Source of the DNA: Escherichia coli
GTDB taxonomy: Bacteria; Pseudomonadota; Gammaproteobacteria; Enterobacterales; Enterobacteriaceae
Strand: one strand, 5' to 3'
Length of the DNA stretch: 64,000 nucleotides
NCBI RefSeq assembly: GCF_003334765.1
Contig: NZ_QOWT01000007.1
The notes under the pieces are model-generated. The model saw only the letters and a program-made list of their open reading frames with translations. It did no database searches and was not told the origin of the DNA. Below are positions 1 to 64,000 of this stretch, in pieces (the stretch's first letter is position 1; each line of letters starts with the position of its first letter). Made by a program: the position numbers and the translations under genes.

Positions 1-200
1 ACGGTTCGGTGATCTTTACTCTAAAAGCAACACGTACTGGTAACACGATTACTGTGATTGGTGCGGGCGAGGCGAGGAACTGGACACTGTGCTTGCGCAA
101 TGTTGTGAAAGTAAATGGTCTGCAAGGCGGTTCGCAGGCTGAAAGTGAGCAGGGGCTGGTGGTGAAGCCTCAAGGGAATGCGCTGACAATTACGTTGTAA
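1..200 (+). CDS. 3' end of a gene truncated by the window edge (stop at 198-200); product unknown
   Basis: Open frame from the window start to TAA at 198-200, convergent with yicH. Only 66 codons visible; identity not recognised. Confidence 0.35.
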   Translation, partial: GSVIFTLKATRTGNTITVIGAGEARNWTLCLRNVVKVNGLQGGSQAESEQGLVVKPQGNALTITL

Positions 201-252
201 TCTATTGATGGAATGCCGGGTACGTCTGAGTCGTACCCGACGAGATTGATGT

Positions 253-1962
253 TTACTGCACCGGCTCCGTCGATGTAACTTCACCGCTGGAAACGACGCC
301 CGCATTCATGGTTTGAGTCACTTGCTGCTTTGCGGCGTTCACGGCATGCAATTGCCCGCTAACCGTAGGTTTCAGCGGGGCATTGGCCTGAATATCTCCA
401 CTGGCGGTAAGCTGAATATTGCCGTCGCCAGTCAACGGTAATTCAGGCCATCCCCATTGTTGCAAAATATTCACCGGCACACCGCGTCCATTCAGGCTGA
501 TATGGGTCTGACGTTGTGGCGTTTGTGAAACACTGGCGGTGGCTTCCAGAATGCCTTTTTCAGTAAATGCACTCAGTTCGCTGATATTCACCGTGCTGCT
601 GTTGGCGGTCAGCGCCAGCGACGGGCGACGAACATCAACACGATTGAATGTCGCGGCGGCGGCATTCAGATTCGCCGAGCCACTCCAGACGCCCCATTTA
701 TGATCGGTAACCAGCGTCAGGTTGGCACCGTAACCATCGAGCGTGGTGAGCTGCCACGGGAAGTCAGGGTCGATATCAATGATCAGATTGCGGCTGGCGC
801 TAAATCTCTTCAGTTGCAGGCTGTTTAACCAACCGGGTGTCGTTTCCATCCACAACTGTTGCCAGTTTTTCGGCAAGGTATATTCCAGCCCGGCAATTGC
901 CGCATCATCAAGGATCAACGTTTTCCCGTCACGCAGCCAGTTCCCTGACGTTCTGACCATACCCCCTTCCCAGCGGCTGGTGAACTGGCGCAGCGCTACG
1001 CCCTGCGGGGAAAATTCCGCGTTTATAATCGGGTCAAATAAATGCAGCGAACCATAAATGAACTCGCTAGCGTTCATCGACAGTTTGCCTTCTTGTGTCT
1101 GCCAGTCATCTTTACTGAAGGTCATGTTGCGCAAGCTGAGATCGAGGTCGGTCACCGCCCAGTCCGGACCTTGCAAACGAGCATCGATCACTTCCAGGCG
1201 ACCAATCTGCAACGACGGGACAGAGCGTAATGGCGCAAAGAAGTCGGTTAGCGATTTTTCGCTTTGTAGACGGATATCCGCCATGCGCAGGTTTTCCACT
1301 TGCCAGCTGCCGTCGGCGTTACGCTGCGCGTTTCCGGTTAATGTCCCGCGCGCGATGTCGGCACCCAGGTTAGTCAGCGTAACGCGATCGTTATCAATAC
1401 TGCCTTCAATCAGTACATTGGTGGCAGGAACATCATTGAGCGAAAGCGATCCGGCACTAAACTGAATCTGCGCCTTCGTACCCAGCACTTTACCGGCTTC
1501 TGGTGACCACGGAACCACGCCGCCATTTACCCGCTGCGCGCTCAGTTTCCATTCGCTATTCGGGCTATTAAACGCCATATCACGCAGTTGCAGACGATCG
1601 GCTTTGAACGGTAGCGGCGCGGTCTGGTCGGTGAGATTCAGCGTCCCGTTTTCCAGCAGGATGGTATCGACATGGCGTGGTTCGGTCAGTTGCCGACTAC
1701 TTAGCGCAATGTCGACACTTTTGGCCACCAGGGTCGCGGGCTGGCCATCACGACCAAACGTGACATTCTCCAGCACGATATGAGATGGCGCGGAAAAACG
1801 GTGATCCATCGCCCCGAAGGCCAGATGATAGTCGCTATTCTCGGAAACCCATGCGCTGATATGTTCTGCTCCCCAGCGGGTTTGCAGAAGAAAATAGAGG
1901 CCAGCGATCACCACTAACAGAGCGATGAGAATGTAGAGAAGCAGCTTCCCAATAAATTTCAT
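253..1962 (-). CDS. yicH: AsmA-family outer-membrane assembly protein
   Basis: 577-aa ORF; internal Met (MKFIGKLLLYIL...) gives about 569 aa with an N-terminal TM/signal segment; synteny next to xanP. Confidence 0.8.
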   Translation of the reverse strand: MKFIGKLLLYILIALLVVIAGLYFLLQTRWGAEHISAWVSENSDYHLAFGAMDHRFSAPSHIVLENVTFGRDGQPATLVAKSVDIALSSRQLTEPRHVDTILLENGTLNLTDQTAPLPFKADRLQLRDMAFNSPNSEWKLSAQRVNGGVVPWSPEAGKVLGTKAQIQFSAGSLSLNDVPATNVLIEGSIDNDRVTLTNLGADIARGTLTGNAQRNADGSWQVENLRMADIRLQSEKSLTDFFAPLRSVPSLQIGRLEVIDARLQGPDWAVTDLDLSLRNMTFSKDDWQTQEGKLSMNASEFIYGSLHLFDPIINAEFSPQGVALRQFTSRWEGGMVRTSGNWLRDGKTLILDDAAIAGLEYTLPKNWQQLWMETTPGWLNSLQLKRFSASRNLIIDIDPDFPWQLTTLDGYGANLTLVTDHKWGVWSGSANLNAAAATFNRVDVRRPSLALTANSSTVNISELSAFTEKGILEATASVSQTPQRQTHISLNGRGVPVNILQQWGWPELPLTGDGNIQLTASGDIQANAPLKPTVSGQLHAVNAAKQQVTQTMNAGVVSSGEVTSTEPVQ

Positions 1963-2082
1963 GGTCTTCCATCCCGTGAAATGCACATAAGGGAGTTATG
2001 CACGATTTACGCGCAATCCTCAAGGCGGGAATGGTGAAAGAGGTGAGACTGCGGCGGTAATTATCTTACCGCCGCCAGTGAA

Positions 2083-3474
2083 TTACTGTTTTTCTGGTGG
2101 GAAAATCAGATTCAGCACGATGGCAGTAATACCGCCCGCGGCGATCCCGGAGGAGAGCAGGTTTTTCAGCCATTCAGGGGCAAACTGCAAAATCAGCGGC
2201 TGCTGAGACACGCCCAGACCAACCGCCAGCGACAGCGCGATAATCAGAATCGCCCGACGGTTCAGCGGCTCACGAGAAACGATACGCACACCGGAGGCGG
2301 CGATGGTGCCAAACATTACAAGCGTTGCGCCGCCCAGAACCGGTTCTGGAATGTGTTGTACAAAACCGCTCACTGCCGGGAACAGACCCAGCACGATCAA
2401 CATCAGCGCGACGACAAAACCGACATAGCGGCTGGCAACACCAGTCAACTGGATCACTCCGTTGTTTTGCCCGAAGCAGGAGTTCGGGAAGGTGTTAAAC
2501 ACCGCCGAAACAAACGAGTTCAGGCCGTTTGCCAGCACGCCACCTTTCAGGCGTTTCATGTACAGCGGACCGGACACTGGCTGTTCGGAAACGTCAGAGG
2601 TCGCCGTGATATCGCCAATGGTTTCCAGCGAAGTGATCATAAAGACCAGCATCAGCGGCAGCAGCAGACTCCATTCAATGCCAAGACCGTAATAGAGCGG
2701 CGTTGGCACCATAATCAGTTCTTGCGTCATCGGTTCGTTGCTTTCTGGCAACATGCCCATAAACCACGCCAGCGCATATCCGGCCGCCATCGCAATCACC
2801 AGTGAGGCCACGCGTAAGTAAGGGTTACGTTGACGGTTAAGCAGGATAATTAAGGCTAAGACCACGCCTGCCAGCAGCAGATTTTTCGGTGCGCCGAAGG
2901 TGTTATCGCTCATGGCTGCGTAACCGCCGCCAATGGACGTTAACCCAACCTGAATTAGCGACAGGCCGATAATCATCACCACAACGCCAGAAACCAGCGG
3001 CGTAATAATGCGGCGCGCCAGATGCAGAACGCGGGAGATCACCATCTCGGTGCAACTTGCCAGCATCAACGTGCCGAACAAAGCCGCCATCATGGTAGGA
3101 ACATCAGCACCACCGGTTTTCAGCGCGGTACCGCCCATAATCAGCGGGGCAACAAAGTTGAAGCTGGTGCCCTGAATAGACAACAGCCCGGAGCCAACCG
3201 GACCCCAGGCCTTAATTTGAATAATCGATGCCACACCGGAGGCAAACAGCGACATACTAATAATGTGTTGCGTGTCTTGTGCCGGTAAACCCAGCGCCTG
3301 GCAGATTAATAGCGCTGGCGTGATCACCGCAACGAACATCGCCAGCAGATGCTGACAGGCGGCAAACAGGGTTTGAGGAAGCGGCGGACGATCTTCAAGA
3401 CGGTAAATCAGTTCGCTGTTTTGAGTCTGCGCAACCGGTTGCGCATTTTCTGACTCGAGGGTGGAAACAGACAT
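2083..3474 (-). CDS. xanP: xanthine permease (NCS2 family)
   Basis: Translation [34 protein letters not shown]..., polytopic membrane protein, 463 aa from the internal Met. Confidence 0.9.
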
Positions 3475-3753
3475 CGAAAACAATCCCGTGGTAGCAAAGC
3501 GGGCATTTTAGCTGACCGAAAGAGAAAAGCAAACGTTTGCCACATCCTCATCTAAATATTTAAATGAGATAAATGCACTTTTTTATATAACTTTTGGTAT
3601 TTTTCTGCTTAAAATCCATGCCATTTGTTCATTAACAGCTGAGAATTTGACCCAGGAAAGCATAACTCGATACCCGTCATAGTTCATGAAGTTGCCACTG
3701 CGCGATGAAGTATGACGAGTATGAAAGAGTGATGCGGATACAAAGGAGTAACT

Positions 3754-4959
3754 ATGTTTCATCTCGATACTTTAGCAACGCTTGTTGCCGCAACGCTGAC
3801 GTTGCTGCTCGGGCGTAAGTTGGTCCATTCCGTCTCCTTTTTGAAGAAATACACCATACCGGAACCTGTTGCGGGTGGTTTGTTGGTGGCGCTGGCGCTA
3901 CTAGTACTGAAAAAAAGCATGGGCTGGGAAGTCAACTTTGATATGTCCCTGCGCGATCCGTTAATGCTGGCTTTCTTCGCCACCATTGGCCTGAACGCCA
4001 ACATTGCCAGTTTGCGTGCCGGTGGGCGTGTGGTTGGCATCTTCTTGATTGTGGTTGTTGGTCTGTTGGTGATGCAAAATGCCATTGGCATTGGTATGGC
4101 TAGCCTGTTAGGGCTTGATCCGCTGATGGGGCTGTTGGCCGGTTCTATTACGCTTTCCGGCGGTCACGGTACGGGCGCTGCGTGGAGTAAATTGTTCATT
4201 GAACGTTATGGCTTCACCAATGCGACGGAAGTGGCGATGGCCTGTGCAACGTTCGGTCTGGTGCTGGGCGGCTTGATTGGCGGTCCGGTGGCGCGCTATC
4301 TGGTGAAACACTCCACCACGCCGAACGGTATTCCGGATGACCAGGAAGTCCCGACGGCGTTTGAAAAGCCGGATGTGGGCCGCATGATCACCTCGTTGGT
4401 GCTGATTGAAACTATCGCGCTGATTGCTATCTGCCTGACGGTGGGGAAAATTGTTGCGCAACTTTTGGCTGGCACTGCTTTTGAACTGCCGACCTTCGTC
4501 TGTGTACTGTTTGTTGGCGTGATTCTGAGCAACGGTCTGTCAATAATGGGCTTTTACCGCGTCTTTGAGCGTGCGGTATCCGTGCTGGGTAACGTAAGCT
4601 TGTCGTTGTTCCTGGCGATGGCGTTGATGGGGCTGAAACTGTGGGAGCTGGCTTCGCTGGCGCTGCCGATGCTGGCGATTCTGGTGGTACAGACCATCTT
4701 CATGGCGTTGTATGCCATCTTCGTTACCTGGCGCATGATGGGCAAAAACTACGATGCGGCAGTGCTGGCTGCGGGTCACTGTGGTTTTGGCCTCGGTGCA
4801 ACGCCAACGGCAATCGCCAACATGCAGGCGATCACTGAACGCTTTGGCCCGTCGCACATGGCGTTTTTGGTGGTGCCGATGGTCGGTGCGTTCTTTATCG
4901 ATATCGTCAATGCGCTGGTAATTAAGTTGTATTTGATGTTGCCGATTTTTGCCGGTTAA
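3754..4959 (+). CDS. gltS: sodium/glutamate symporter
   Basis: 401-aa hydrophobic ORF MFHLDTLATLVAATLTLLLGRKLVHS..., recognised as GltS. Confidence 0.9.
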   Translation: MFHLDTLATLVAATLTLLLGRKLVHSVSFLKKYTIPEPVAGGLLVALALLVLKKSMGWEVNFDMSLRDPLMLAFFATIGLNANIASLRAGGRVVGIFLIVVVGLLVMQNAIGIGMASLLGLDPLMGLLAGSITLSGGHGTGAAWSKLFIERYGFTNATEVAMACATFGLVLGGLIGGPVARYLVKHSTTPNGIPDDQEVPTAFEKPDVGRMITSLVLIETIALIAICLTVGKIVAQLLAGTAFELPTFVCVLFVGVILSNGLSIMGFYRVFERAVSVLGNVSLSLFLAMALMGLKLWELASLALPMLAILVVQTIFMALYAIFVTWRMMGKNYDAAVLAAGHCGFGLGATPTAIANMQAITERFGPSHMAFLVVPMVGAFFIDIVNALVIKLYLMLPIFAG

Positions 4960-5124
4960 CCGATGAAGCGGCGGTAGAAGTGCCGCCGCAACAAAGACAA
5001 ATGCCTGATACGCTTCGCTTATCAAGCCTGCGTATTGATTCATAATTTATTGAATTTGTAGGGTGAATCGCATCCGGCAGGAAGGTAGGGTAACCTGAAA
5101 TGGCGGTCTTCTCACTGCCGCCTT

Positions 5125-7206
5125 TTACGCATTCGAGTAACGTTCTGTCTCCGGCATCCAGCGTTCTATCAAGGCTTTTGCCTGTTGTGGGTAACGTTCG
5201 TGAATATGTCGCGCCAGGCGCTGAACTTCCGGGATCATCGCCTGATCGCGCAGTAAATCCGCCACTTTAAATTCAGCATTACCCGTCTGACGCGTGCCTA
5301 ACAATTCGCCAGGGCCGCGAATCTCCAGATCTTTTTGCGCAATCACAAAACCGTCGTTACTGTCGCGCAGCACTTGCAGGCGAATTTGCGCCGTTTTAGA
5401 AAGCGGCGTTTTGTAGAGCAGCACGCAGTGAGAAGCCACCGCGCCACGACCTACGCGCCCGCGCAGCTGGTGTAACTGCGCCAGACCCAGACGCTCAGGG
5501 TTTTCGATAATCATCAGGCTGGCGTTAGGCACATCAACACCGACTTCAATAACGGTAGTGGCAACCAGCAGATGTAGCTCACCTTGTTTAAACGACGCCA
5601 TCACCGCCTGTTTCTCGGCTGGTTTCATCCGCCCGTGTACCAGGCCAACATTCAATTCTGGTAGCGCCAGTTTCAACTCTTCCCAGGTAGCTTCCGCCGC
5701 CTGCGCTTCCAGTAACTCTGACTCTTCAATCAACGTACAAACCCAGTACGCCTGACGACCTTCAGTTATGCAGGCGTGGCGCACGCGGTCAATGATGTCG
5801 GTACGGCGGGTATCAGGAATAGCGACCGTAGTCACTGGCGTGCGGCCTGGCGGCAGCTCATCTATCACCGAGGTATCGAGATCGGCATACGCCGTCATTG
5901 CCAGCGTGCGGGGGATCGGCGTGGCGGTCATGATCAACTGATGCGGATGGAAGCCCTGCTGCTGGCCTTTCTCCCACAATGCCAGACGCTGATGCACGCC
6001 AAAACGATGCTGTTCGTCGATAATCACCAGCGCCAGGCCGTTAAACTGCACCTGTTCCTGGAAGATGGCGTGTGTACCGACAATCATCTGCACCTGACCG
6101 CTGGCGATGGCTTCCTGCTGAGACAGTCGCGCTTTGCCTTTCTGCTTACCGGCGAGCCAGCCCACTTTGATACCGAGCGGTGCAAACCAGTTGCGGAAGT
6201 TATTGGCGTGCTGCTCGGCGAGTAATTCGGTTGGTGCCATCAGTGCCACCTGTTTGCCGTGGGCAATCGCACGCAGCGCGGCGAGGGCGGCGACCAGCGT
6301 TTTACCGGAACCTACATCGCCCTGTACCAGGCGCATCATCGGCACATCCAGCGCCATATCATGCTCGATCTCCGCCACTACGCGTGCCTGTGCGCCCGTT
6401 GGCTTGAACGGTAAGGCGGCGAGGAGTTTATTTTTCAGCGTGTCATTGGCGCTCAGCGGCTGGGCATGAAAACGCTGTGCTCCGGCACGTAAGGCTAACA
6501 TGCTGAGGTTGTGCGCCAGCAGTTCTTCCAGAATCAGACGACGTTGCGCCGGATGCTGCCCGGTTTCCAGATCGCTAAGCTGTAGCGTCGGTGGCGGGCG
6601 GTGCAAAGTGCGCAACGCTTCCGGTAGCGTCATCATTCCTTGTGACAGTTCCGGCGGCAGGAGTTCTTCAATGGCGCAGGTGTCGAGCAGATCCAGCGCC
6701 TGGTCGGTTAATTTACGCAGCGTGGCCTGCTTTACGCCTTCCGTTGTTGGATAAACCGGCGTGAGCGTTTCCTGTAATTCTGGCGTGCTGAGATCGCCCT
6801 GCACGCGGTATTCCGGGTGGATCATCTCCGCACCATATTTACCGCGCTTTGCTTCGCCATAAGCCAGTACACGGCGGCCCGTCGCCAGGCTATTTTTCAT
6901 TGCCGCGCTGAAATTGAAAAAGCGCATGGTGAGGATGCCGGAACCGTCGCTGATCTGGCAGGTCATCATCCGCCGACCGCCGAAGGAGATATTGCAGTTC
7001 AGCACTTCGCCTTCCACCGTGGCATAAACGCCCGGCAGTAGTTCTCCGATGGGGTAGAGATGGGTGCGATCTTCGTAGCGCAGGGGAAGGTGTAAGAGTA
7101 AATCCTGCACGGTATGCAGGTTGATTTTCGCCAGTTTGTTACTAAGCGCTGCGCCAACGCCCGTTAGGGAACTGAGCGGGACAGTATCTAACAGGCGGCC
7201 TTTCAT
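5125..7206 (-). CDS. recG: ATP-dependent DNA helicase RecG
   Basis: 693 aa from MKGRLLDTVPLSSL...; Walker A GDVGSGKT, DEQH box; last gene of the spoT operon. Confidence 0.95.
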   Translation of the reverse strand: MKGRLLDTVPLSSLTGVGAALSNKLAKINLHTVQDLLLHLPLRYEDRTHLYPIGELLPGVYATVEGEVLNCNISFGGRRMMTCQISDGSGILTMRFFNFSAAMKNSLATGRRVLAYGEAKRGKYGAEMIHPEYRVQGDLSTPELQETLTPVYPTTEGVKQATLRKLTDQALDLLDTCAIEELLPPELSQGMMTLPEALRTLHRPPPTLQLSDLETGQHPAQRRLILEELLAHNLSMLALRAGAQRFHAQPLSANDTLKNKLLAALPFKPTGAQARVVAEIEHDMALDVPMMRLVQGDVGSGKTLVAALAALRAIAHGKQVALMAPTELLAEQHANNFRNWFAPLGIKVGWLAGKQKGKARLSQQEAIASGQVQMIVGTHAIFQEQVQFNGLALVIIDEQHRFGVHQRLALWEKGQQQGFHPHQLIMTATPIPRTLAMTAYADLDTSVIDELPPGRTPVTTVAIPDTRRTDIIDRVRHACITEGRQAYWVCTLIEESELLEAQAAEATWEELKLALPELNVGLVHGRMKPAEKQAVMASFKQGELHLLVATTVIEVGVDVPNASLMIIENPERLGLAQLHQLRGRVGRGAVASHCVLLYKTPLSKTAQIRLQVLRDSNDGFVIAQKDLEIRGPGELLGTRQTGNAEFKVADLLRDQAMIPEVQRLARHIHERYPQQAKALIERWMPETERYSNA

Positions 7207-7211
7207 GGCGC

Positions 7212-7901
7212 TTACCCTGCGGCCTGCATGGTGGACCACCAGTCAGCATCAGCTTCGATCTCGCCTTGCTGATTGACGTGGGGGTAAGGCAGGCCTTTGC
7301 GTTTTGCGACTTTCGCCAGCACCGGATAGCCGCCTTCAAACAACAGGCGTTGTTGCTCTGCTTCCGGCAACATGCTGTTTTCACGCAGGTACATGCCTGC
7401 ATTTTGCCGCTGACGCTGGGCTTCGTAAAGAATGAGGGCTGAGGCAACGGAAACATTCAGCGACTGCACCATGCCGATCATCGGAATGATGATGTCCTGA
7501 TCCGCCAGGGCCAATGCTTCCTGCGTGATGCCCGTTTTCTCCTGTCCCATCAAAATGCAGGTCGGGCGAGTGTAATCAATTTCGCGGAAATCGACAGCAT
7601 TATCAGAAAGATGGGTTGCCAGAATCTGCATGCCCTGGCCTTTCAGATGAGCGACGGCATCGCCAATGGTGCGGTGTGTTTTCACCTGTACCCAGCTGTT
7701 ACTACCCGCCGCTGCCGAAGCCATGGTGCGCATCCGGCTACCAGGCCAGACGGCGTGAACTTCATGTACGCCAACGGCATCTGCGGTACGAATAATCGCA
7801 GAAACGTTATGAGGTTTGTGGACCTGCTCCATGCAGACGGTCAGGTCAGGCTGCCGCCTGGCGAGCATTTCGCAGATGCGTGCATAACGTGTTGGGTTCA
7901 T
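7212..7901 (-). CDS. trmH: tRNA (Gm18) 2'-O-methyltransferase
   Basis: 229-aa SpoU-family ORF MNPTRYARICEMLARRQPDL... between spoT and recG. Confidence 0.9.
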   Translation of the reverse strand: MNPTRYARICEMLARRQPDLTVCMEQVHKPHNVSAIIRTADAVGVHEVHAVWPGSRMRTMASAAAGSNSWVQVKTHRTIGDAVAHLKGQGMQILATHLSDNAVDFREIDYTRPTCILMGQEKTGITQEALALADQDIIIPMIGMVQSLNVSVASALILYEAQRQRQNAGMYLRENSMLPEAEQQRLLFEGGYPVLAKVAKRKGLPYPHVNQQGEIEADADWWSTMQAAG

Positions 7902-7907
7902 AAAACA

Positions 7908-10016
7908 TTAATTTCGGTTTCGGGTGACTTTAATCACGTCTGGCATCACGCGGATTTTGCGCATGATATTCGCCAGATGCACACGGTCACGAGCGGTCAG
8001 ACGAATAAAGGCGCTGTAGACGCGACCATCTTTCTCTTCCGTATTCAAACTTTGAATATTCGAGGTCGTGGTGTTAATTGCCGCCGTCAGGTTTGCCAGC
8101 GCACCCTGATGATTGAACATCTCCACCTTGATTTCGGTGATGAATTCCTGCGCCGTCTCTTTATCCCATTCCACAGCCATAAACTTCTCTGGCTCTTTCT
8201 GGTAGCCACGGATGTTACGGCAGGATTCATGGTGGATCACCAGACCTTTACCGGGGCTGACGTGGGCGATAATCGGGTCGCCAGGAATAGGGCGGCAGCA
8301 TTTCGCAAAGGTGATCAGCACGCCATCGGCACCTTTAATTGGCAGATGTCCGTGACTTTGGGTTGCCGGTGGAATGGAGGCGTCCCCATGTTGTAGATTT
8401 TTCGCGACCACCACGCTCATTGCGTTACCAAGGCCGATTTCAGCCAGCAGATCGTCAAGCGTTGCCAGCTTCATGCGATCCAGCTCGCGCTGAATATTTT
8501 CCTGCGGGATTTCATTCAGCTTACGGCTACCACCCAAAGCATGGTTGAGCAGACGACGGCCCAGGCTTACAGAATCATCACGCTTGAGGTTTTTCAGCAA
8601 CTGACGAATTTTGGCGCGCGCTTTTGAGCTAACGACAAAGTTCAGCCACGCGGCATTCGGGCGAGCGCCCGGTGCGGTAATGATTTCAACGGTTTGACCG
8701 CTGGTAAGCGGCTGCGACAGCGGGTAAGGCTGGCGGTCAACGCGTGCGCCCACGCAGGCATGACCGATATCGGTATGCACTGCATAAGCGAAGTCGACGG
8801 GCGTTGCACCGGCAGGCAGCTCGACAATGCGCCCTTCCGGTGTGAAAACGTAAATCTCATCCGGGAAGAGATCGGATTTAACGCTCTCGATAAATTCAAA
8901 CGAACTACCGGCGCTCTGTTGCAGCTCCAGCAGGCTTTGCATCCAGCGCTGGGCGCGGATTTGTGCGGTAGTACTGGTTTCGCCGTGCTCTTTATAAGCC
9001 CAGTGCGCGGCAACACCCATCTCCGCCATCTGATCCATATCTTCGGTACGGATCTGGACCTCAACCGGCACGCCGTGCGGGCCAATCATCGAGGTGTGCA
9101 AAGACTGATAGCCGTTCGCTTTTGGAATGGCGATATAGTCTTTCACGCGGCCCGGACGCGGCTTGTACAGGCTGTGCATCTGGCCCAGCACGCGATAACA
9201 GGTGTCAGAATCATTGACGATCACGCGGAAAGCGTAGATGTCCATGATTGAGTGAAAACGCTGCTCTTTGAGCACCATTTTGCAGTAAATCGAATAAAGA
9301 TGCTTTTCGCGACCACTGACGCGGCACGGTATTCCCGCTTCCTGCAAACGCCCTTCGATTTCAGAAAGAATCTTCTGGATCATCTCTTTACGGTTGCCGC
9401 GCGCGGCTTTCACCACTTCTTTGATTACGCGATAACGGTTGGGATACAGCGCCTCAAAACCCAGCTCTTCGAGTTCGGTTTTAATGTGGTGGATACCTAA
9501 ACGGTGCGCCAGCGGGCTGTAAATTTCGAGAGTTTCACGGGCGATGCGGCGACGTTTGTCCGGGCGAAGTGAGCCCAGCGTGCGCATGTTGTGGGTACGG
9601 TCGGCAAGTTTGATGAGGATGACGCGGATATCCTGCACCATCGCCATAATCATCTTGCGAAAGTTTTCGGCCTGCGCCTCTTTCTTATCGCGGAACTTGA
9701 GTTTATCAAGTTTCGACACCCCCTCTACCAGCTCGGCGACGCTTTTACCAAAAAGCTGTTCCATATCCTGGTAGGTGGCGGGAGTATCTTCAATCACGTC
9801 ATGCAGCAGCGCCGCCATCAGCGTTTCATAGTCGAGTTTCATCTCGGCCAGAATGCAGGCAACCGCTACCGGGTGCGTGATATAGGGTTCACCGCTTGAA
9901 CGTGTTTGCCCCTCGTGAGCATCACGTGCAACGAGATACGCCTGCCGCAGACGCTTGATTTGGTCTTCCGGCAGGTAGGTTTGAATCAGTTGATTCAGGC
10001 TTTCAAACAGATACAA
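7908..10016 (-). CDS. spoT: bifunctional (p)ppGpp synthetase/hydrolase SpoT
   Basis: 702 aa, HD-domain N-terminus (HDVIEDT), RelA/SpoT synthetase region, TGS/ACT C-terminus. Confidence 0.95.
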   Translation of the reverse strand: MYLFESLNQLIQTYLPEDQIKRLRQAYLVARDAHEGQTRSSGEPYITHPVAVACILAEMKLDYETLMAALLHDVIEDTPATYQDMEQLFGKSVAELVEGVSKLDKLKFRDKKEAQAENFRKMIMAMVQDIRVILIKLADRTHNMRTLGSLRPDKRRRIARETLEIYSPLAHRLGIHHIKTELEELGFEALYPNRYRVIKEVVKAARGNRKEMIQKILSEIEGRLQEAGIPCRVSGREKHLYSIYCKMVLKEQRFHSIMDIYAFRVIVNDSDTCYRVLGQMHSLYKPRPGRVKDYIAIPKANGYQSLHTSMIGPHGVPVEVQIRTEDMDQMAEMGVAAHWAYKEHGETSTTAQIRAQRWMQSLLELQQSAGSSFEFIESVKSDLFPDEIYVFTPEGRIVELPAGATPVDFAYAVHTDIGHACVGARVDRQPYPLSQPLTSGQTVEIITAPGARPNAAWLNFVVSSKARAKIRQLLKNLKRDDSVSLGRRLLNHALGGSRKLNEIPQENIQRELDRMKLATLDDLLAEIGLGNAMSVVVAKNLQHGDASIPPATQSHGHLPIKGADGVLITFAKCCRPIPGDPIIAHVSPGKGLVIHHESCRNIRGYQKEPEKFMAVEWDKETAQEFITEIKVEMFNHQGALANLTAAINTTTSNIQSLNTEEKDGRVYSAFIRLTARDRVHLANIMRKIRVMPDVIKVTRNRN

Positions 10017-57310: not shown

Positions 57311-59224
57311 TTACTTACGACCTGCCAGCAGTTCCAGCACTTCATCCACGCTGGTGGTGTGTGCCAGACGCTCGATGACGGACTCATCATCCAGTGCATT
57401 GGTCAGGCTGGTGATAACCTGAATGTGCTCGTTGTTACGGGCAGCAATACCAATCACCAGACGGGCAATGTCATCTTCTTCTTCACCGAAGCGCACGCCT
57501 TCCGGGTACTGGCAGAACACGACGCCCGTTTTCAGTACGCGATCTTTCGCTTCAACCGTACCGTGTGGCACCGCGATAGACTCACCCAGATAAGTCGGGG
57601 TCAGTTTTTCACGATCCAGCATCGCCTGAACGTATTCCGGCTCAACGTAACCGCCTTTCACCAGCTGCTCGCCAGCAAAACGAATCGCTTCTTCTTTGGT
57701 TGCCGCTTTGCGACCGAGGAAGATGTTCTCCGCGCCTAGCTTGAACAGGTTAGCACTGGAATCGTCAAAGCTGTCTTTCAGGCTGTCTTTTACTTTCTCT
57801 TCGTTTGCCGTGTGGCGTTGGGCAGCAACCAGACGTTCGGTCAGGCTGGTGTACAGGCCGCTGTCGAGGAAGTTGGTCAGCGAAATATGCTGTGCCTGCG
57901 GAACCTGGCGCATAGCGCGTTCGGTCAGGTCACGGTGAGTGATGACGAGGTCCACATCTGGCGGCAGGTTGTTGATCGCGCTGTTAGTAACAGAAATCTG
58001 CGACAGACCTGCATCCTGAATTTTCTTACGCAGAACGCCTGCGCCCATCGCACTGGAACCCATACCGGCGTCACAGGCAACGATGATTTTACGTACGTGG
58101 CTCAGGTCGTTAGTCACATCGCCAGCAGACAGCGGAGATGCGCCTTTAGACTCAGCTTTCATGTCCTGCATACGACGAGTTGCTGCTTCAATATCATCTT
58201 CTTCTTTCACTTTGCTGGTTTTCAGCAAAATAGCAGAGACAACGAAGGAGACAGCCATCGCCGCACACACACCCGCGATGTTAGCGAAGTAAGCACCTTT
58301 TGGTGTCATCGCCAGTACAGCAAGGATAGAACCCGGAGATGCCGGAGAAACCAGACCACCGCCCAGGATAGTCAGCGTGAACACGCCAGTCATACCGCCG
58401 AGGATGACTGCGAGGATCAGACGCGGATTCATCAGCACATACGGGAAGTAGATTTCGTGGATACCCCCCAGGAAGTGGATGATTGCCGCACCGCCCGCAG
58501 ACTGTTTAGCGCTACCACGACCAAAGAACATGTACGCCAGCAGCACGCCCATACCTGGACCTGGGTTAGCTTCAATCAGGAAGAAGATTGATTTACCCAG
58601 TTCATGGGACTGCTGAATACCCAGCGGCGAGAAGATACCGTGGTTAATGGCGTTGTTGAGGAACAGGATTTTCGCCGGTTCAACAAAGATAGACGCCAGC
58701 GGCAGCATGTCATGGACAACCATGAAGTTAACGCCCGCAGCCAGCATTTTGGACAGGGCTTCAACAATCGGGCCAATGCCGAGGAATGCCAGAATAGCGA
58801 GGATCATCCCGATGATGCCTGCGGAGAAGTTATTCACCAGCATCTCAAAACCGGATTTGATCTTACCGTCTACCCAGCGGTCGAAGTGCTTAATGCACCA
58901 GCCGCCCAGCGGACCTGCAATCATAGAACCGAGGAACATCGGCATGTCTGCGCCGACGATAACGCCCATGGTGGTGATGGCACCGACTACGCCGCCACGT
59001 TCGCCGCCTACCAGCTTACCACCGGTATAACCGATCAGCAGCGGCAGGAGATAAGTGATCATCGGCCCGACCAGCTTCGCCAGCGTCTCGTTCGGTAACC
59101 ACCCTGTTGGAATAAATAACGCGGTGATGATACCCCACGCGATAAACGCGCCGATATTTGGCATCACCATGTTGCTGAGGAAACGACCAAAGCTTTGCAC
59201 TTTGATCTTAATATCGGATGACAT
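57311..59224 (-). CDS. mtlA: PTS mannitol-specific EIICBA component
   Basis: 637-aa [42 protein letters not shown]... Confidence 0.95.
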
Positions 59225-59760: not shown

Positions 59761-60123
59761 ATGTTTCTAAACTATTTCGCGTTGGGAGTGCTGATCTTCG
59801 TCTTTCTGGTGATTTTTTATGGAATCATCGCGATACATGACATCCCTTATCTGATTGCCAAAAAGCGCAACCATCCCCATGCCGACGCTATTCATACGGC
59901 GGGCTGGGTGAGCCTGTTTACTCTGCATGTTATCTGGCCGTTTCTGTGGATCTGGGCGACGCTCTATCAACCGGAGCGTGGCTGGGGTATGCAGTCACAT
60001 GTTGCGTCGCAGGAGAAAGCGACTGACCCGGAAATCGCCGCACTTTCTGACCGAATTTCCCGGCTGGAGCATCAACTCGCCGCCGAGAAAAAGACTGACT
60101 ATTCCACGTTCCCGGAGATCTAA
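59761..60123 (+). CDS. yibI: small inner-membrane protein YibI
   Basis: 120-aa [60 protein letters not shown]... Confidence 0.8.
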
Positions 60124-60125
60124 TT

Positions 60126-61262
60126 ATGGATCTATTGATTGTTTTAACTTACGTGGCGCTGGCGTGGGCGGTCTTTAAAATCTTCCGCATTCCGGTAAAT
60201 CAGTGGACGCTGGCGACGGCGGCGCTGGGAGGCGTGTTTCTGGTGAGTGGTTTGATTTTGTTGATGAACTACAACCACCCTTACACTTTTACCGCGCAAA
60301 AGGCAGTGATAGCGATCCCTATCACGCCACAGGTGACGGGAATTGTTACTGAAGTCACTGACAAGAATAATCAGCTTATTCAAAAGGGCGAGGTGCTTTT
60401 TAAGCTCGACCCGGTTCGTTACCAGGCGCGAGTTGACAGACTTCAGGCTGACCTGATGACGGCGACGCATAATATAAAGACGCTGCGTGCGCAGCTCACT
60501 GAAGCGCAGGCCAACACCACCCAGGTTTCAGCGGAGCGCGACCGTCTGTTTAAAAATTATCAACGTTACTTGAAAGGCAGCCAGGCGGCGGTGAATCCGT
60601 TCTCGGAACGTGACATCGACGATGCGCGGCAAAATTTCCTCGCGCAGGATGCGCTGGTGAAAGGCTCGGTGGCGGAGCAGGCGCAGATCCAGAGCCAGCT
60701 CGACAGTATGGTTAACGGCGAGCAATCGCAGATTGTGAGCTTAAGAGCGCAACTTACTGAAGCAAAATATAACCTTGAGCAGACTGTCATTCGCGCGCCG
60801 AGCAATGGCTACGTTACTCAGGTACTGATCCGCCCAGGTACATACGCAGCTGCCTTGCCGCTGCGTCCGGTGATGGTCTTCATCCCCGAGCAAAAACGGC
60901 AAATTGTCGCCCAATTTCGGCAAAACTCGCTGTTACGTCTGAAACCCGGCGATGATGCGGAAGTGGTGTTTAACGCGCTACCTGGGCAGGTGTTTCACGG
61001 CAAACTGACTAGTATTTTACCTGTCGTGCCAGGCGGTTCTTATCAGGCGCAGGGGGTATTGCAATCATTAACGGTCGTGCCCGGCACGGACGGTGTGCTG
61101 GGAACCATTGAACTGGACCCTAACGATGATATCGATGCCTTACCCGACGGCATCTACGCCCAGGTGGCGGTTTACTCCGACCATTTCAGCCATGTTTCGG
61201 TGATGCGGAAAGTGCTGCTAAGAATGACCAGCTGGATGCATTATCTTTATTTGGATCATTGA
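60126..61262 (+). CDS. yibH: HlyD-family membrane-fusion (periplasmic adaptor) protein
   Basis: 378-aa ORF with N-terminal TM helix, coiled-coil segments and beta-barrel-like C-terminus; start 3 bp after the yibI stop. Confidence 0.8.
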
Positions 61263-61824
61263 GGGGGAGGGGGGAGATTATGGAACTTTGCTCCTTGTAA
61301 GGACTAATTATTTTTGCATATTACTTCATTAGCTGCGATGATTTTTCTTTAATATTCATTATGTTAATAAGTTCTGGATGAGTGTGCTCTCATTGGATTT
61401 TTTATCCGTCTTGTTCTGCCGCAGGATGAGACTATACATCGTCGAGATCGCAATGATGATATGAGTTGTTCCTCCTGCGACGGCTCTAATCAAAAAAGAG
61501 CAGGAGTGCTTTTCCATCTATTGCGATGATGGCTTTATTATCTGAAGGATGACAGTCACATTTAAAAAATATTTAATCTATAGATCACAATGTAGGGTCA
61601 TGGAATATATGTATACAACTATTTTCTTCTTCACTTTTAATTATCGTATTCATTATAAAACTAAGTTAAAAAAACTCCTGGAGAGTGAGTTATTAATATA
61701 TTTTTAAATAAAATTAAGTTATCATTCATCGATGCACTTTATAGAATCATCAATGGCCATAATAGTACTATTAACTCTCAATTTTATATTTTTATCATCA
61801 CTACAAATATTAACTGAATTTATA

Positions 61825-62160
61825 TCAATGATTTTTTTTATTCTTATCTTTTATTTTATTTACTGTTTCAATGCAATCAGCGGCAAGTTGGAGTGGATTT
61901 AGATTTTTCAGATATGGTCTTATGATCTTTCCCTTACTTAATAAATAGCATGTATAGGATTCGGAAAGTCCAGCATCTATTTTGTACCTCCTTATATTAG
62001 ATAAGGATGTGAGAAATTCCTTGTTATCATTCGCAGCCATATATGCCAGTCCGAGTTCAGCCTCTGCGGCCTTACAGGCAAAATAGCTTAGTGAACACGC
62101 TTTTCGTCCCTCTTTAGTACTGGCTGATATTAGTGCCCATAATATTGCTTTGTCTGCCAA
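61825..62160 (-). CDS. hypothetical 111-aa protein downstream of a decayed Rhs C-terminal fragment (candidate orphan immunity protein; possibly yibV)
   Basis: 111-aa ORF MADKAILWALISASTKEGRKACSLSYFACKAAEAELGLAYMAANDNKEF... in AT-rich DNA; position relative to the Rhs remnant. Confidence 0.4.
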   Translation of the reverse strand: MADKAILWALISASTKEGRKACSLSYFACKAAEAELGLAYMAANDNKEFLTSLSNIRRYKIDAGLSESYTCYLLSKGKIIRPYLKNLNPLQLAADCIETVNKIKDKNKKNH

Positions 62161-62248
62161 ATCTAACTCTCTCTGAAATTGTCTTGCAGTAACTGCACTC
62201 GCAGAAATAGAGAAAAAAATACAATTGTTAATAACCTTGCCATATTTT

Positions 62249-62866
62249 TTAGTCCGTAACTGTTAATGTGCTATCTGGCTCTGAAAATATTAACTCATTT
62301 AATTTTTGCATGTCATTAGATAAACCAGTTATACAACCCTCGGAACAGAATCGAGGTCCTAAAGACGGACCAAAAGCGTTTAAACAACTATGTATTGAAA
62401 ATCCATTGCGATTATAAGTTCCTGTATTAACTGACGGTACTAATCGTATGCCGTCAGGTTTTCTATTGCTTGCTCCCGGGTCATTAACATTCCAACTCCA
62501 TAGGCCTTGAGGTATTGGCTATCTATTTATAAATGTGTACAACGGGGATTATTTTTACATTGCATATTATTACCAGAAGCGACTGGAATACTAAGCACAT
62601 CATAAAAATTATCATCACATGGTATATCTGAAACACACGAAAGCATACCTAAAGTTATGCTGTATAAACAGGTGGCTAATCCCAAGGGGATCGATTCCAG
62701 AAATCGGGTTCAACGGATACTGATAAAAATTCCACCTACCTTCCAGCCCAATCGGAGCCTGAGTGTTATACCGCCCCTGCTGCGGTTAATGTTACCGATA
62801 ATAGTTATAGTACAGCCCTGATTCATCATCATACTACTGCTGCGGCAGTCTGATGAACTATTGCTT
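62249..62866 (-). pseudogene. decayed orphan Rhs C-terminal fragment (core-end remnant + disrupted CT domain)
   Basis: 62706-62860 is a diverged copy of the Rhs core-end DNA at 63857-64000. Minus-strand translation gives [53 protein letters not shown]... with in-frame stops and a downstream frameshift; no ORF of 60 aa or more. Confidence 0.65.
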
Positions 62867-63328
62867 TTACGGATTCTCCTTATTCTTCCTTCTATCCATT
62901 CGCTTTAGCTTTTTGAGCTCTTGAAGTTTGCTCTTTGCATCAATATTACCGTTATTTACAGCGAATTCCATCCAATAAATAGCTCTATTCAAATTATAAT
63001 ATTCTGATAATGTTGGATTTGTATCTGATAAAAAGACCCCATAATTAAACTGCGCTGTAACATTCCCCTGAGATGCTGATCTTTCCAAGAATCGCAATTG
63101 TTTGTAAATGTTATTTTTAGTAAAGCAGTAATATTGATATAGTCGAAATGATGCCTCTGAATCACCATGTTGTGATTTATACTTCAGTTTCATCAACTTT
63201 TCTTCACTTAAATCATAGGTCATTGCTGTAGACCCCATCATACTTTCGTTTTGTTTTATTTTCACATCAGCACCATGCAATTGACAAATAAAAGAGAAAT
63301 AAAAAAATAGTAACAAGCATGCTTTCAT
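62867..63328 (-). CDS. yibG: Sel1-like repeat protein with N-terminal signal/TM segment; candidate immunity protein for the upstream Rhs C-terminal domain
   Basis: 153-aa ORF MKACLLLFFYFSFICQLHGADVKIKQNE...SASQGNVTAQFNYGVFLSD (Sel1-like motif); start 12 bp after the Rhs-CT stop. Confidence 0.6.
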   Translation of the reverse strand: MKACLLLFFYFSFICQLHGADVKIKQNESMMGSTAMTYDLSEEKLMKLKYKSQHGDSEASFRLYQYYCFTKNNIYKQLRFLERSASQGNVTAQFNYGVFLSDTNPTLSEYYNLNRAIYWMEFAVNNGNIDAKSKLQELKKLKRMDRRKNKENP

Positions 63329-63339
63329 ACATCTACAAC

Positions 63340-64000
63340 CTATCTTATATCACTGGGTTTTTCTGGCGTACCTTGCATATTAGAAATGGGGTGCCCAGAT
63401 GGCCCATATGTTATCCAATTACCAAGGTCTTTTGTTGTTATAGCCATTAGATCCTTATTTGAATTAAGGTTCGTTGGTGCTGTTAGCACTGTATCCATTT
63501 TTAACTTACCATTAGTTCCTCGCCCCCACCACGTCCATAGCGTGTCAGGTCCTATTACATTTGTATGTAACTCTTTAGCTAATTGGCTAGCAAATGAATT
63601 TTGTCCTTTACCTGTATTACAAGAAAATAACCAAACTGTCATCCCATCTTTATAATTCCCATCAAATTTAATTAGATATGCTAGATCTTTAGCTGTCATG
63701 ATACTGCGCGTTGCGGATTCAATAGATGTGGGGGTACCATGCCCCCCGATTGTGAAAACGCCTGGGATATTAATCTCATCAGCTACAGAATGGATAAGAT
63801 CACTTTCGGGGTATAAATTTATATCAACCAAACCTTGCGGATCTACATTTATGACCGGATTCAACGGATACTGATAAAAATTCCATCCCCCCTTCAGCCC
63901 AATCGGATCCTGAGTGATATACCGCCCCTGCAGCGGGTCATAATAGCGGTGGCGGTTGTAATACAGGCCGGACTCCTCATCATACTGCTGCCCCGGCAGG
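63340..64000 (-). CDS. Rhs-family protein, 3' portion (core-end motifs + variable C-terminal domain of unknown function); 5' end lies beyond the window
   Basis: Minus-strand frame is open to the window edge and reads ...[57 protein letters not shown] (PxxxxDPxGL demarcation at 63829-63858), then a 162-aa C-terminal domain ending at 63340. The ORF-track start at 63864 is a TTG artefact. Confidence 0.75.

Follow-up and report, generated by a model that had tools for sequence, protein, structure and literature searches.

A decayed Rhs toxin-tip and Imm57 immunity cassette at the rhsA locus of Escherichia coli

Rhs C-terminal tips that were displaced downstream by new tips have been described as dissociated or orphan tips (Jackson 2009, PMC2935791), and orphan Rhs tip modules with rhsI immunity genes are known as well (Poole 2011, PMC3150448). 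The locus studied here raises the question of what such a module still encodes. Is the small open reading frame behind a second, damaged Rhs core end an immunity gene that has outlived its toxin, or is it a fragment of a dead gene in a dead module? The original prediction had described a second, decayed Rhs-CT/immunity module downstream of an rhs locus, with an intact 111-aa ORF as its surviving part. We analyzed this module in a window of 64,000 nucleotides of E. coli DNA, meaning by the window the whole stretch at its full length. The predicted arrangement, here with the module downstream of the active rhs–yibG pair, matches the layout of dissociated tips (PMC2935791, PMC3150448). Within the stack of Rhs tips at the rhsA locus, the cassette is very probably the oldest and most distal layer, a relic in which the toxin gene and the Imm57 immunity gene are both broken.

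The right end of the window is the rhsA–yibH–mtlA region of E. coli in reverse complement, with the rhs material on the minus strand extending up to the window edge (Table 1). The 2.7 kb at 61300–64000 are 100% identical to strain BS74R-D, and this region was found in 3,298 of the 5,426 complete E. coli genomes at a coverage of at least 80%. The main rhs position of a 100%-identical genome encodes an RHS element core protein of 1409 aa and is followed by yibG and then by the remnant. The core of the main rhs closes with a DPQGL motif (63829–63843). The yibJ-type tip attached to it had no Pfam match even at E ≤ 10, and yibG is presumed to be its immunity gene.

Table 1. Features at the right end of the window, with their names in K-12 MG1655 where the cassette DNA is concerned
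Feature	Coordinates	Strand	K-12 name (id)	Basis or remark
mtlA	57311–59224	−
yibI	59761–60123	+
yibH	60126–61262	+
ISAs1-family (H-repeat) transposase remnant	61359–61557	−	yibU (b4652), pseudogene	K-12 annotation
Imm57-family (PF15596) immunity pseudogene, 522 nt, 173 aa	61722–62243	−		Pfam, alignment to intact alleles, PGAP flag
111-aa ORF, TTG start	61825–62160	−	yibV (b4615), CDS	Imm57 stretch between two frameshifts
Tlde1/DUF2778-type L,D-peptidase toxin tip remnant	62249–62613	−	yibW (b4651), pseudogene
Rhs core-end remnant	62615–62866	−	yibS (b4650), pseudogene	homology to core ends at 62705–62848
yibG, Sel1-repeat protein, 153 aa	62867–63328	−		ORF list, RefSeq annotation
toxin tip joined to main rhs	63340–63828	−		annotation; same tip is the K-12 orphan pseudogene yibJ
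full-length rhs, conserved core 3' end	63829–64000	−		NCBIfam RHS_core and Rhs_assc_core; gene cut by window

The feature is already annotated and explained as a known relic of the rhsA locus in E. coli. NCBI PGAP treats two genes of the 100%-identical genome as pseudogenes here: the Rhs remnant, labelled a partial 'RHS repeat-associated core domain-containing protein' and interrupted by an internal stop, and the Imm57 gene, labelled a frameshifted 'Imm57 family immunity protein' of 522 nt. The MG1655 annotation keeps yibV as a protein-coding CDS of 111 aa ('PF15596 family protein'). The distal boundary of the Rhs element is marked by the yibU remnant, which matched the NCBIfam model transpos_ISAs1 weakly (E = 6.8e-5, 22 bits; cut-off 70). 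The cassette is AT-rich, with a G+C content of 22–44% against about 50% at the core end, which fits the classic Rhs pattern. A search of 61200–63400 against Rfam returned a single chance-level match (E = 0.79) and no known RNA family. A scan of the region found 10 promoter-like sites, at chance level (9.3 expected), and zero terminator-like sites, and is uninformative on expression.

The element of the cassette nearest to yibG is a damaged copy of an Rhs core end. BLAST aligned 62705–62848 on the minus strand with the core end of the main rhs at 63856–63999 at 80.6% identity over 144 nt without a gap (E = 6e-34, computed against a small local database; a MAFFT alignment was also made). This homology is far above chance, and the diverged duplicate that had been proposed at about 62706–62860 against 63857–64000 is real. 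The translated yibS remnant reads as an Rhs core end including the PxxxxDPxGL region, interrupted by three stops (TAG at 62834–62836, TAA at 62792–62794 and TAA at 62786–62788) and by one +1 frameshift. The latter lies in a run of C residues at 62686–62689, within the DPxGL codons of a degenerate DPLG motif (62681–62692). We ruled out an inserted extra TAG near 62835; according to the ungapped alignment, this stop is a CAG→TAG substitution. Against each of the Rhs core ends that we sampled, of RhsA, RhsB, RhsC and RhsD types, the yibS remnant has an identity of 78–81%. This nearly equal distance indicates that it has no close parent among them, and an RhsD/E lineage was rejected for the same reason. 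The yibS remnant is an old relative of the neighboring rhs, not a recent copy.

The tip that follows could be identified through its intact counterpart. Alignment of the remnant to intact Rhs alleles points to a Tlde1-type tip as the ancestral CT, intact in strain APEC37, in which one uninterrupted frame runs from the Rhs core through DPLGL into a tip of 150 residues that aligns over its full length with the window remnant. The APEC37 allele matched Pfam RHS with E = 4.9e-15 and Tlde1_dom (PF10908) with E = 1.8e-6, the latter at a modest score of 28.8 bits. In MLI114 and ST648, RefSeq labels shorter ORFs as 'tlde1 domain-containing protein', and homologues of the tip with 50–66% identity from Ralstonia, Paraburkholderia and metagenomes carry precomputed PF10908 matches. 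In the family alignment, H104 and S120-E121-G122-C123 are invariant in 7 homologues; the window still has readable codons for the catalytic His (62390–62392) and for SEGC (62333–62344). Membership in this family would predict L,D-carboxypeptidase/transpeptidase activity on peptidoglycan. A PDB sequence search with the intact tip gave zero matches even at E ≤ 10. A protein search with the tip returned only short or orphan-type proteins of at most 249 aa and zero full-length Rhs proteins, likely because clustering at 90% masks tips beneath other Rhs representatives; full-length Rhs with a Tlde1 tip came from a DNA search instead.

In the window, the toxin ORF for the Tlde1 domain is broken by four reference-frame stops and by indels of +1, −9 and −1. 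Besides the core-end lesions described above, the tip has lost 9 nt near 62575 and a single nucleotide (−1) near 62529, and it carries a TAG at 62519–62521 that is private to the window allele and absent in K-12, all upstream of the natural stop of the yibW remnant at 62249–62251. The in-frame TAA/TAG codons and the downstream frameshift that the original prediction had read from the copy are borne out by these stops and the +1, −9 and −1 indels. The toxin lesions are common to K-12, O121, O6:H16, 99-3165 and SCZE5. Identical lesions across these strains indicate that the toxin died once, ahead of the immunity gene.

Directly downstream of the tip, after a gap of 5 nt between the toxin end at 62249 and position 62243, lies the gene of an Imm57-family protein with its ATG at 62241–62243 and its natural stop at 61722–61724. 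On the intact 173-aa allele, Pfam Imm57 matched residues 30–127 with E = 1.9e-47; in NCBIfam, neither Imm57 nor the 111-aa ORF has a family. Two single-base changes separate the window allele from the intact one. The run at 62213–62219 has seven T instead of eight (−1), and the ATG frame ends after 26 codons, whereas the run at 61832–61839 has eight A instead of seven (+1), and the frame of the gene body ends at 61825. The ORF that had been called intact does exist, but it is an internal piece of a twice-frameshifted 173-aa gene. It spans the whole Pfam Imm57 domain without residues 1–28 and without the last 36 (138–173), and, owing to the T7 and A8 frameshifts, a full-length product with export signal and C terminus is not encoded by the window allele.

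The lost segments are conserved features of the protein. The N terminus of intact Imm57 reads MAKLLTIVFFFSISASA, followed by VT. It looks like a Sec signal peptide in having K/R as residue 3, a stretch of hydrophobic residues and an ASA motif. A relative with 52% identity and the protein of Ralstonia likewise have a hydrophobic signal-like N terminus and a C-terminal segment with two conserved Cys residues. Unlike all full-length relatives compared, the 111-aa ORF of the window has neither of them. A residual or altered role of the ORF is conceivable, given that the whole Imm57 domain is retained. Both frameshifts are located in homopolymer runs, where transcriptional or translational slippage could restore a little full-length product.

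Comparison across E. coli genomes recovered the intact versions of both genes. APEC37-type genomes carry an intact orphan tip together with an intact Imm57 gene, and 36 genomes are at least 99% identical to this allele. The intact 522-nt/173-aa Imm57 gene is present in APEC37, ST648, O121:H19 and others. In PE164, the Tlde1 tip is part of a 1392-aa RHS element core protein in the main position adjoining yibF, and this attached tip is 99.5% identical to the orphan tip of APEC37. Imm57 lies beside an LD-peptidase toxin in E. coli APEC37, ST648 and PE164 and in Ralstonia pseudosolanacearum, where the Tlde1 tip is followed by the Imm57 gene. The original prediction had made itself dependent on an intact CT homologue next to a homologue of the ORF in some genome, and such pairs occur in APEC37, PE164 and Ralstonia. 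The Imm57 gene of PE164 is frameshifted to T7, although the full-length Rhs–Tlde1 gene is uninterrupted; in E105, a close relative of PE164, the main rhs has an internal stop as well. These observations fit relaxed selection on the whole system in the PE164/E105 lineage.

The position of the cassette in the stack is the same wherever it was found. In K-12, the layers are rhsA-CT/yibA, then yibJ/yibG, then the Tlde1/Imm57 cassette. Strains differ in what is joined to the full-length rhs: K-12 has the yibA layer there, the window strain has the yibJ-type tip, and PE164 has the Tlde1 tip. The order of the layers is constant where they are present: yibA, yibJ/yibG, Tlde1/Imm57, the ISAs1 remnant and yibH.

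Could the 111-aa ORF nevertheless be a functional orphan immunity gene that has outlived its toxin and guards against the Tlde1-tipped Rhs toxins of other strains? This scenario is real elsewhere. Four genomes with the T8 run that we examined, O121:H19 16-9255, O6:H16 2011EL-1370-2, 99-3165 and SCZE5, had the dead toxin of the window adjoining an unflagged 173-aa Imm57 gene. The window ORF itself has an open frame that takes in the whole Pfam Imm57 domain, and the gene body is 99–100% identical to intact alleles. In the window, however, the signal peptide no longer shares the reading frame, the conserved last 36 residues with the two conserved Cys are gone, the sole in-frame start is a mechanically assigned TTG, the allele carries an additional private M→R change at 61991, and PGAP flags the gene as a frameshifted pseudogene. 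The site of toxin action argues in the same direction. Tlde1/Tldi1, first named Tae5/Tai5, is an effector–immunity pair of Salmonella Typhimurium's type VI secretion system (T6SS) (10.1101/2020.02.18.954545; PMC9638812). Characterized Tlde1-family members are T6SS effectors that cut peptidoglycan in the periplasm of the target, and the immunity protein Tldi1 is Sec-exported (10.1101/2020.02.18.954545). By analogy with these relatives, the toxin of the cassette would have acted in the periplasm, and the 111-aa product, if translated, would be a cytoplasmic fragment that could not reach the toxin and should not protect against it. A protective role of the ORF in the window is very unlikely. The expectation that immunity outlives the toxin thus holds for O121:H19, O6:H16, 99-3165 and SCZE5, a small minority, and does not extend to the window, in which Imm57 is frameshifted twice.

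The states of the two runs were surveyed in the 5,426 complete E. coli genomes with queries of 80–86 nt; at this length, a hit in the '≥99%' band has to be exact. The T7 haplotype was found in 3,233 genomes and the in-frame T8 haplotype in 69, and A8 and A7 in 1,000 and 2,132 genomes, respectively; these counts are of exact haplotypes, and genomes with a nearby SNP fall outside the classes. The joint states were read from twelve sequences (eleven public loci and the window) and from four strains common to the T7 and A7 lists. T8/A7 corresponds to the intact gene, T7/A7 to a gene with a single break (PE164 and 88-3493) and T7/A8 to one with two breaks (K-12 and the window). The four strains E2865, E2863, E2855 and 120899 are in both the T7 and the A7 lists, which places T7/A7 on the common allele. 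T7 exists on at least two allele backgrounds, the APEC37 type (PE164, 88-3493) and the K-12 type. The window represents the last stage of decay, in which the toxin was dead first and the immunity gene followed later.

The same data bear on the idea that the two homopolymer runs are slippage switches of a contingency locus, by which a gene that is not really dead has its immunity turned on and off or held at a low level. Each lesion alters the length of its run by a single base (T7/T8, A7/A8), the occurrence of T7 on two or more backgrounds suggests recurrent slippage, and PE164 has retained an uninterrupted full-length Rhs–Tlde1 gene despite its T7 Imm57. Yet the frequencies are skewed and look nested (T8 69, T7 3,233, A8 about 1,000), as in one-way decay, and for slippage to be efficient, runs of 7–8 are rather short. 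The window allele would require two independent corrections, its cognate toxin is dead anyway, and the internal stop in the main rhs of E105 fits relaxed selection on the whole system. We consider such a switch highly improbable. It is also very doubtful that the T-run in the signal-peptide codons alone is a recurrent slippage site from which T7 cells, including PE164, make a trickle of exported Imm57. If this were true, immunity to Tlde1-tipped Rhs toxins would be tunable instead of lost, and the A8 lesion of the window would put an end to it. That the remnant serves as a silent cassette, a recombination reservoir re-attachable to the main rhs through the common core-end sequence, is extremely improbable: the same tip is joined to the main gene in PE164 and the strain-to-strain differences in layers are explicable by deletions between core-end repeats, but the two core ends in the window are only 80.6% identical with 26 nt as their longest common exact word, and a fusion would bring in three stops and three indels and result in a truncated Rhs without a new toxin.

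The relic is not simply a sequence that has drifted since its inactivation. Across the cassette, the window is 99–100% identical to K-12. Compared with the APEC37 allele, the identity is 74–87% upstream of about 62374 and 97–100% from there through Imm57 and beyond. The divergent segment of the tip differs from the intact APEC37 allele by 13%, with a dS of 0.37 and a dN/dS of 0.21. These values indicate that most of the differences in the tip arose when both alleles were under selection, and we rejected neutral decay as an explanation of the 13% divergence. The toxin remnant is a distinct old functional allele that was killed by a few lesions. ST648 has the reverse pattern, being close to APEC37 in the 5' part of the tip and divergent in the 3' part and in Imm57. 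The opposite patterns of the window and ST648 indicate that the cassette is a mosaic. The recombination breakpoint lies at about 62373–62393, at the codon of the catalytic His, and complicates a simple linear history of the cassette.

For the stack as a whole, we propose the following history, in which the order of the displacement events follows the model for orphan tips (PMC2935791, PMC3150448). An ancestral Rhs protein at the rhsA locus would have ended in a Tlde1-type L,D-peptidase toxin, followed by an exported Imm57-family immunity protein. Recombination would then have placed a newer yibJ-type tip with yibG on the rhs core, displacing the old tip downstream with no more than about 150 bp of core still joined to it. 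Separated from the delivery portion of Rhs and no longer under selection, the orphan tip gathered stops and frameshifts. The Imm57 gene stayed intact longer, as it still is in a few lineages. A T8→T7 slip then cost it the signal peptide, and in the lineage of K-12 and the window an A7→A8 slip also removed 36 residues from the C terminus. At this end point, neither the toxin gene nor the Imm57 gene of the window is expected to yield a working product.

This reading corrects the annotation in that K-12 yibV corresponds to the middle part of an Imm57 immunity gene that carries two frameshifts, and yibS and yibW together are the dead Rhs–Tlde1 toxin that was the former partner of this gene. The population survey also provides a worked case of the stepwise decay of a module, first of the toxin, then of the export signal of Imm57 and then of its C terminus, with a few lineages frozen at each step. 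Beyond good annotation, the significance is small, and the natural alleles found here could serve in tests of Tlde1/Imm57 specificity.

The cassette resembles previously described systems to different degrees. Like orphan Rhs modules (PMC2935791, PMC3150448), it combines a short piece of core that ends in PxxxxDPxGL with an AT-rich tip and an adjoining small gene, it lies downstream of an intact rhs–immunity pair, and in another strain, PE164, its tip forms the end of a full-length Rhs. All features by which orphan Rhs tips are recognized (a core fragment, the downstream position, attachment elsewhere and a small gene after the tip) were found. The difference is that both members are pseudogenes here, whereas many of the described modules are intact. 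The window and K-12 share the DNA of yibS, yibW, yibV and yibU, including the toxin lesions, the T7/A8 state and the 111-aa ORF with its TTG start. The window differs from K-12 by the extra stop at 62519–62521 and the amino-acid change at 61991, and by carrying the yibJ-type tip on the full-length rhs without the rhsA-CT/yibA layer. The pairing of Tox-LD-peptidase and RHS repeats with Imm57 was predicted in 2012 (Zhang et al., PMC3482391); we found the same pairing in E. coli and Ralstonia, and the cassette does not differ in kind from this prediction, being a decayed instance of it.

The relationship to Tlde1/Tldi1 is one of the toxin more than of the immunity protein. The tip matches Pfam Tlde1_dom and keeps the invariant His and the S-x-G-C motif, Rhs–DUF2778 fusions have been reported (10.1101/2020.02.18.954545), and the immunity partner has a signal-peptide-like N terminus as Tldi1 does. 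In contrast, the immunity family is Imm57 (PF15596) here and DUF2195 there. We also counted the spacing between the His and the Cys motif on the family alignment and compared it with the text of the preprint (10.1101/2020.02.18.954545): the H-x15-SEGC of the tip lies within the range of L,D-transpeptidases, HXX14–17[S/T]HGC, whereas the spacing of DUF2778 is shorter.

Among public E. coli loci, O121:H19 strain 16-9255, O6:H16 strain 2011EL-1370-2, 99-3165 and SCZE5 are real cases of a toxin outlived by its immunity gene. In all four, the dead toxin remnant is the one that the window carries, and the Imm57 gene is intact, encoding 173 aa with run lengths of T8/A7. The PE164/E105 lineage, in which a full-length Rhs protein with the Tlde1 tip adjoins yibF, has a frameshifted Imm57 gene (T7). 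In addition to the T7 Imm57 gene, the rhs gene of E105 has an internal stop; PE164 thus combines an apparently intact toxin gene with a broken immunity gene.

The toxin alleles themselves have a composite history. We found a sharp recombination breakpoint within the Tlde1 toxin tip at about 62373–62393 in the window, at the codon of the catalytic His. Upstream of this breakpoint, the window allele diverges from that of APEC37, the strain with an intact orphan tip and an intact Imm57 gene, by 13–26% (dS of 0.37, dN/dS of 0.21), whereas downstream the two alleles are 97–100% identical. Because the ST648 allele has the opposite pattern to the window across the breakpoint, the window, APEC37 and ST648 alleles are mosaics. 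Relative to K-12, the allele shared by the window and BS74R-D has two private changes, an M→R substitution in the body of Imm57 at 61991 and an additional TAG in the toxin remnant at 62519–62521, both of which are consistent with ongoing neutral decay.

Transposase sequences are also found at the cassette. In ST648, an intact ISAs1-family transposase gene directly upstream of the Tlde1 tip stands between the tip and Rhs core sequence. The reading frames of the tip (135 aa) and of Imm57 are open in ST648. The window retains a transposase remnant, with an NCBIfam match (E = 6.8e-5) below the cut-off, which forms the distal boundary of the Rhs element directly before yibH. The hexamers of a promoter-like site in the window, TTAACT and GATAAT, are also those of a constitutive RpoD promoter listed between yibV and yibU in a genomic SELEX study (PMC3946193). 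Lying past the stop codon of the Imm57 gene, the window site would not serve as a promoter for the 111-aa ORF, the Imm57 stretch corresponding to yibV.

Features of the Rhs-associated loci in the window and in other E. coli strains
Feature	Strain	Position	Strand	Remark
Locus with Tlde1 tip on full-length Rhs	PE164	L005 3288–7992		
rhs locus with Tlde1 tip	E105	L014 1288–5992		
Intact ISAs1-family transposase gene	ST648	L006 5777–6913		
Dead toxin and intact Imm57	16-9255, 2011EL-1370-2, 99-3165, SCZE5	L008–L011, locus 2903–4014		
ISAs1/H-repeat transposase remnant (K-12 yibU)	window	61359–61557	−	weak NCBIfam match
Promoter-like site, hexamers TTAACT and GATAAT	window	61640–61669	−	promoter scan
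Toxin tip attached to full-length rhs gene	window	63340–63828	−	

Arguably of greater interest than the dead Tlde1/Imm57 cassette is the toxin tip on the main rhs gene of the window strain. A Pfam search with this tip gave no match even at E ≤ 10, and its sole label, in some RefSeq records, is 'DUF8616'. Its K-12 counterpart is the orphan pseudogene yibJ, and yibG, which encodes Sel1 repeats, follows next after the tip.
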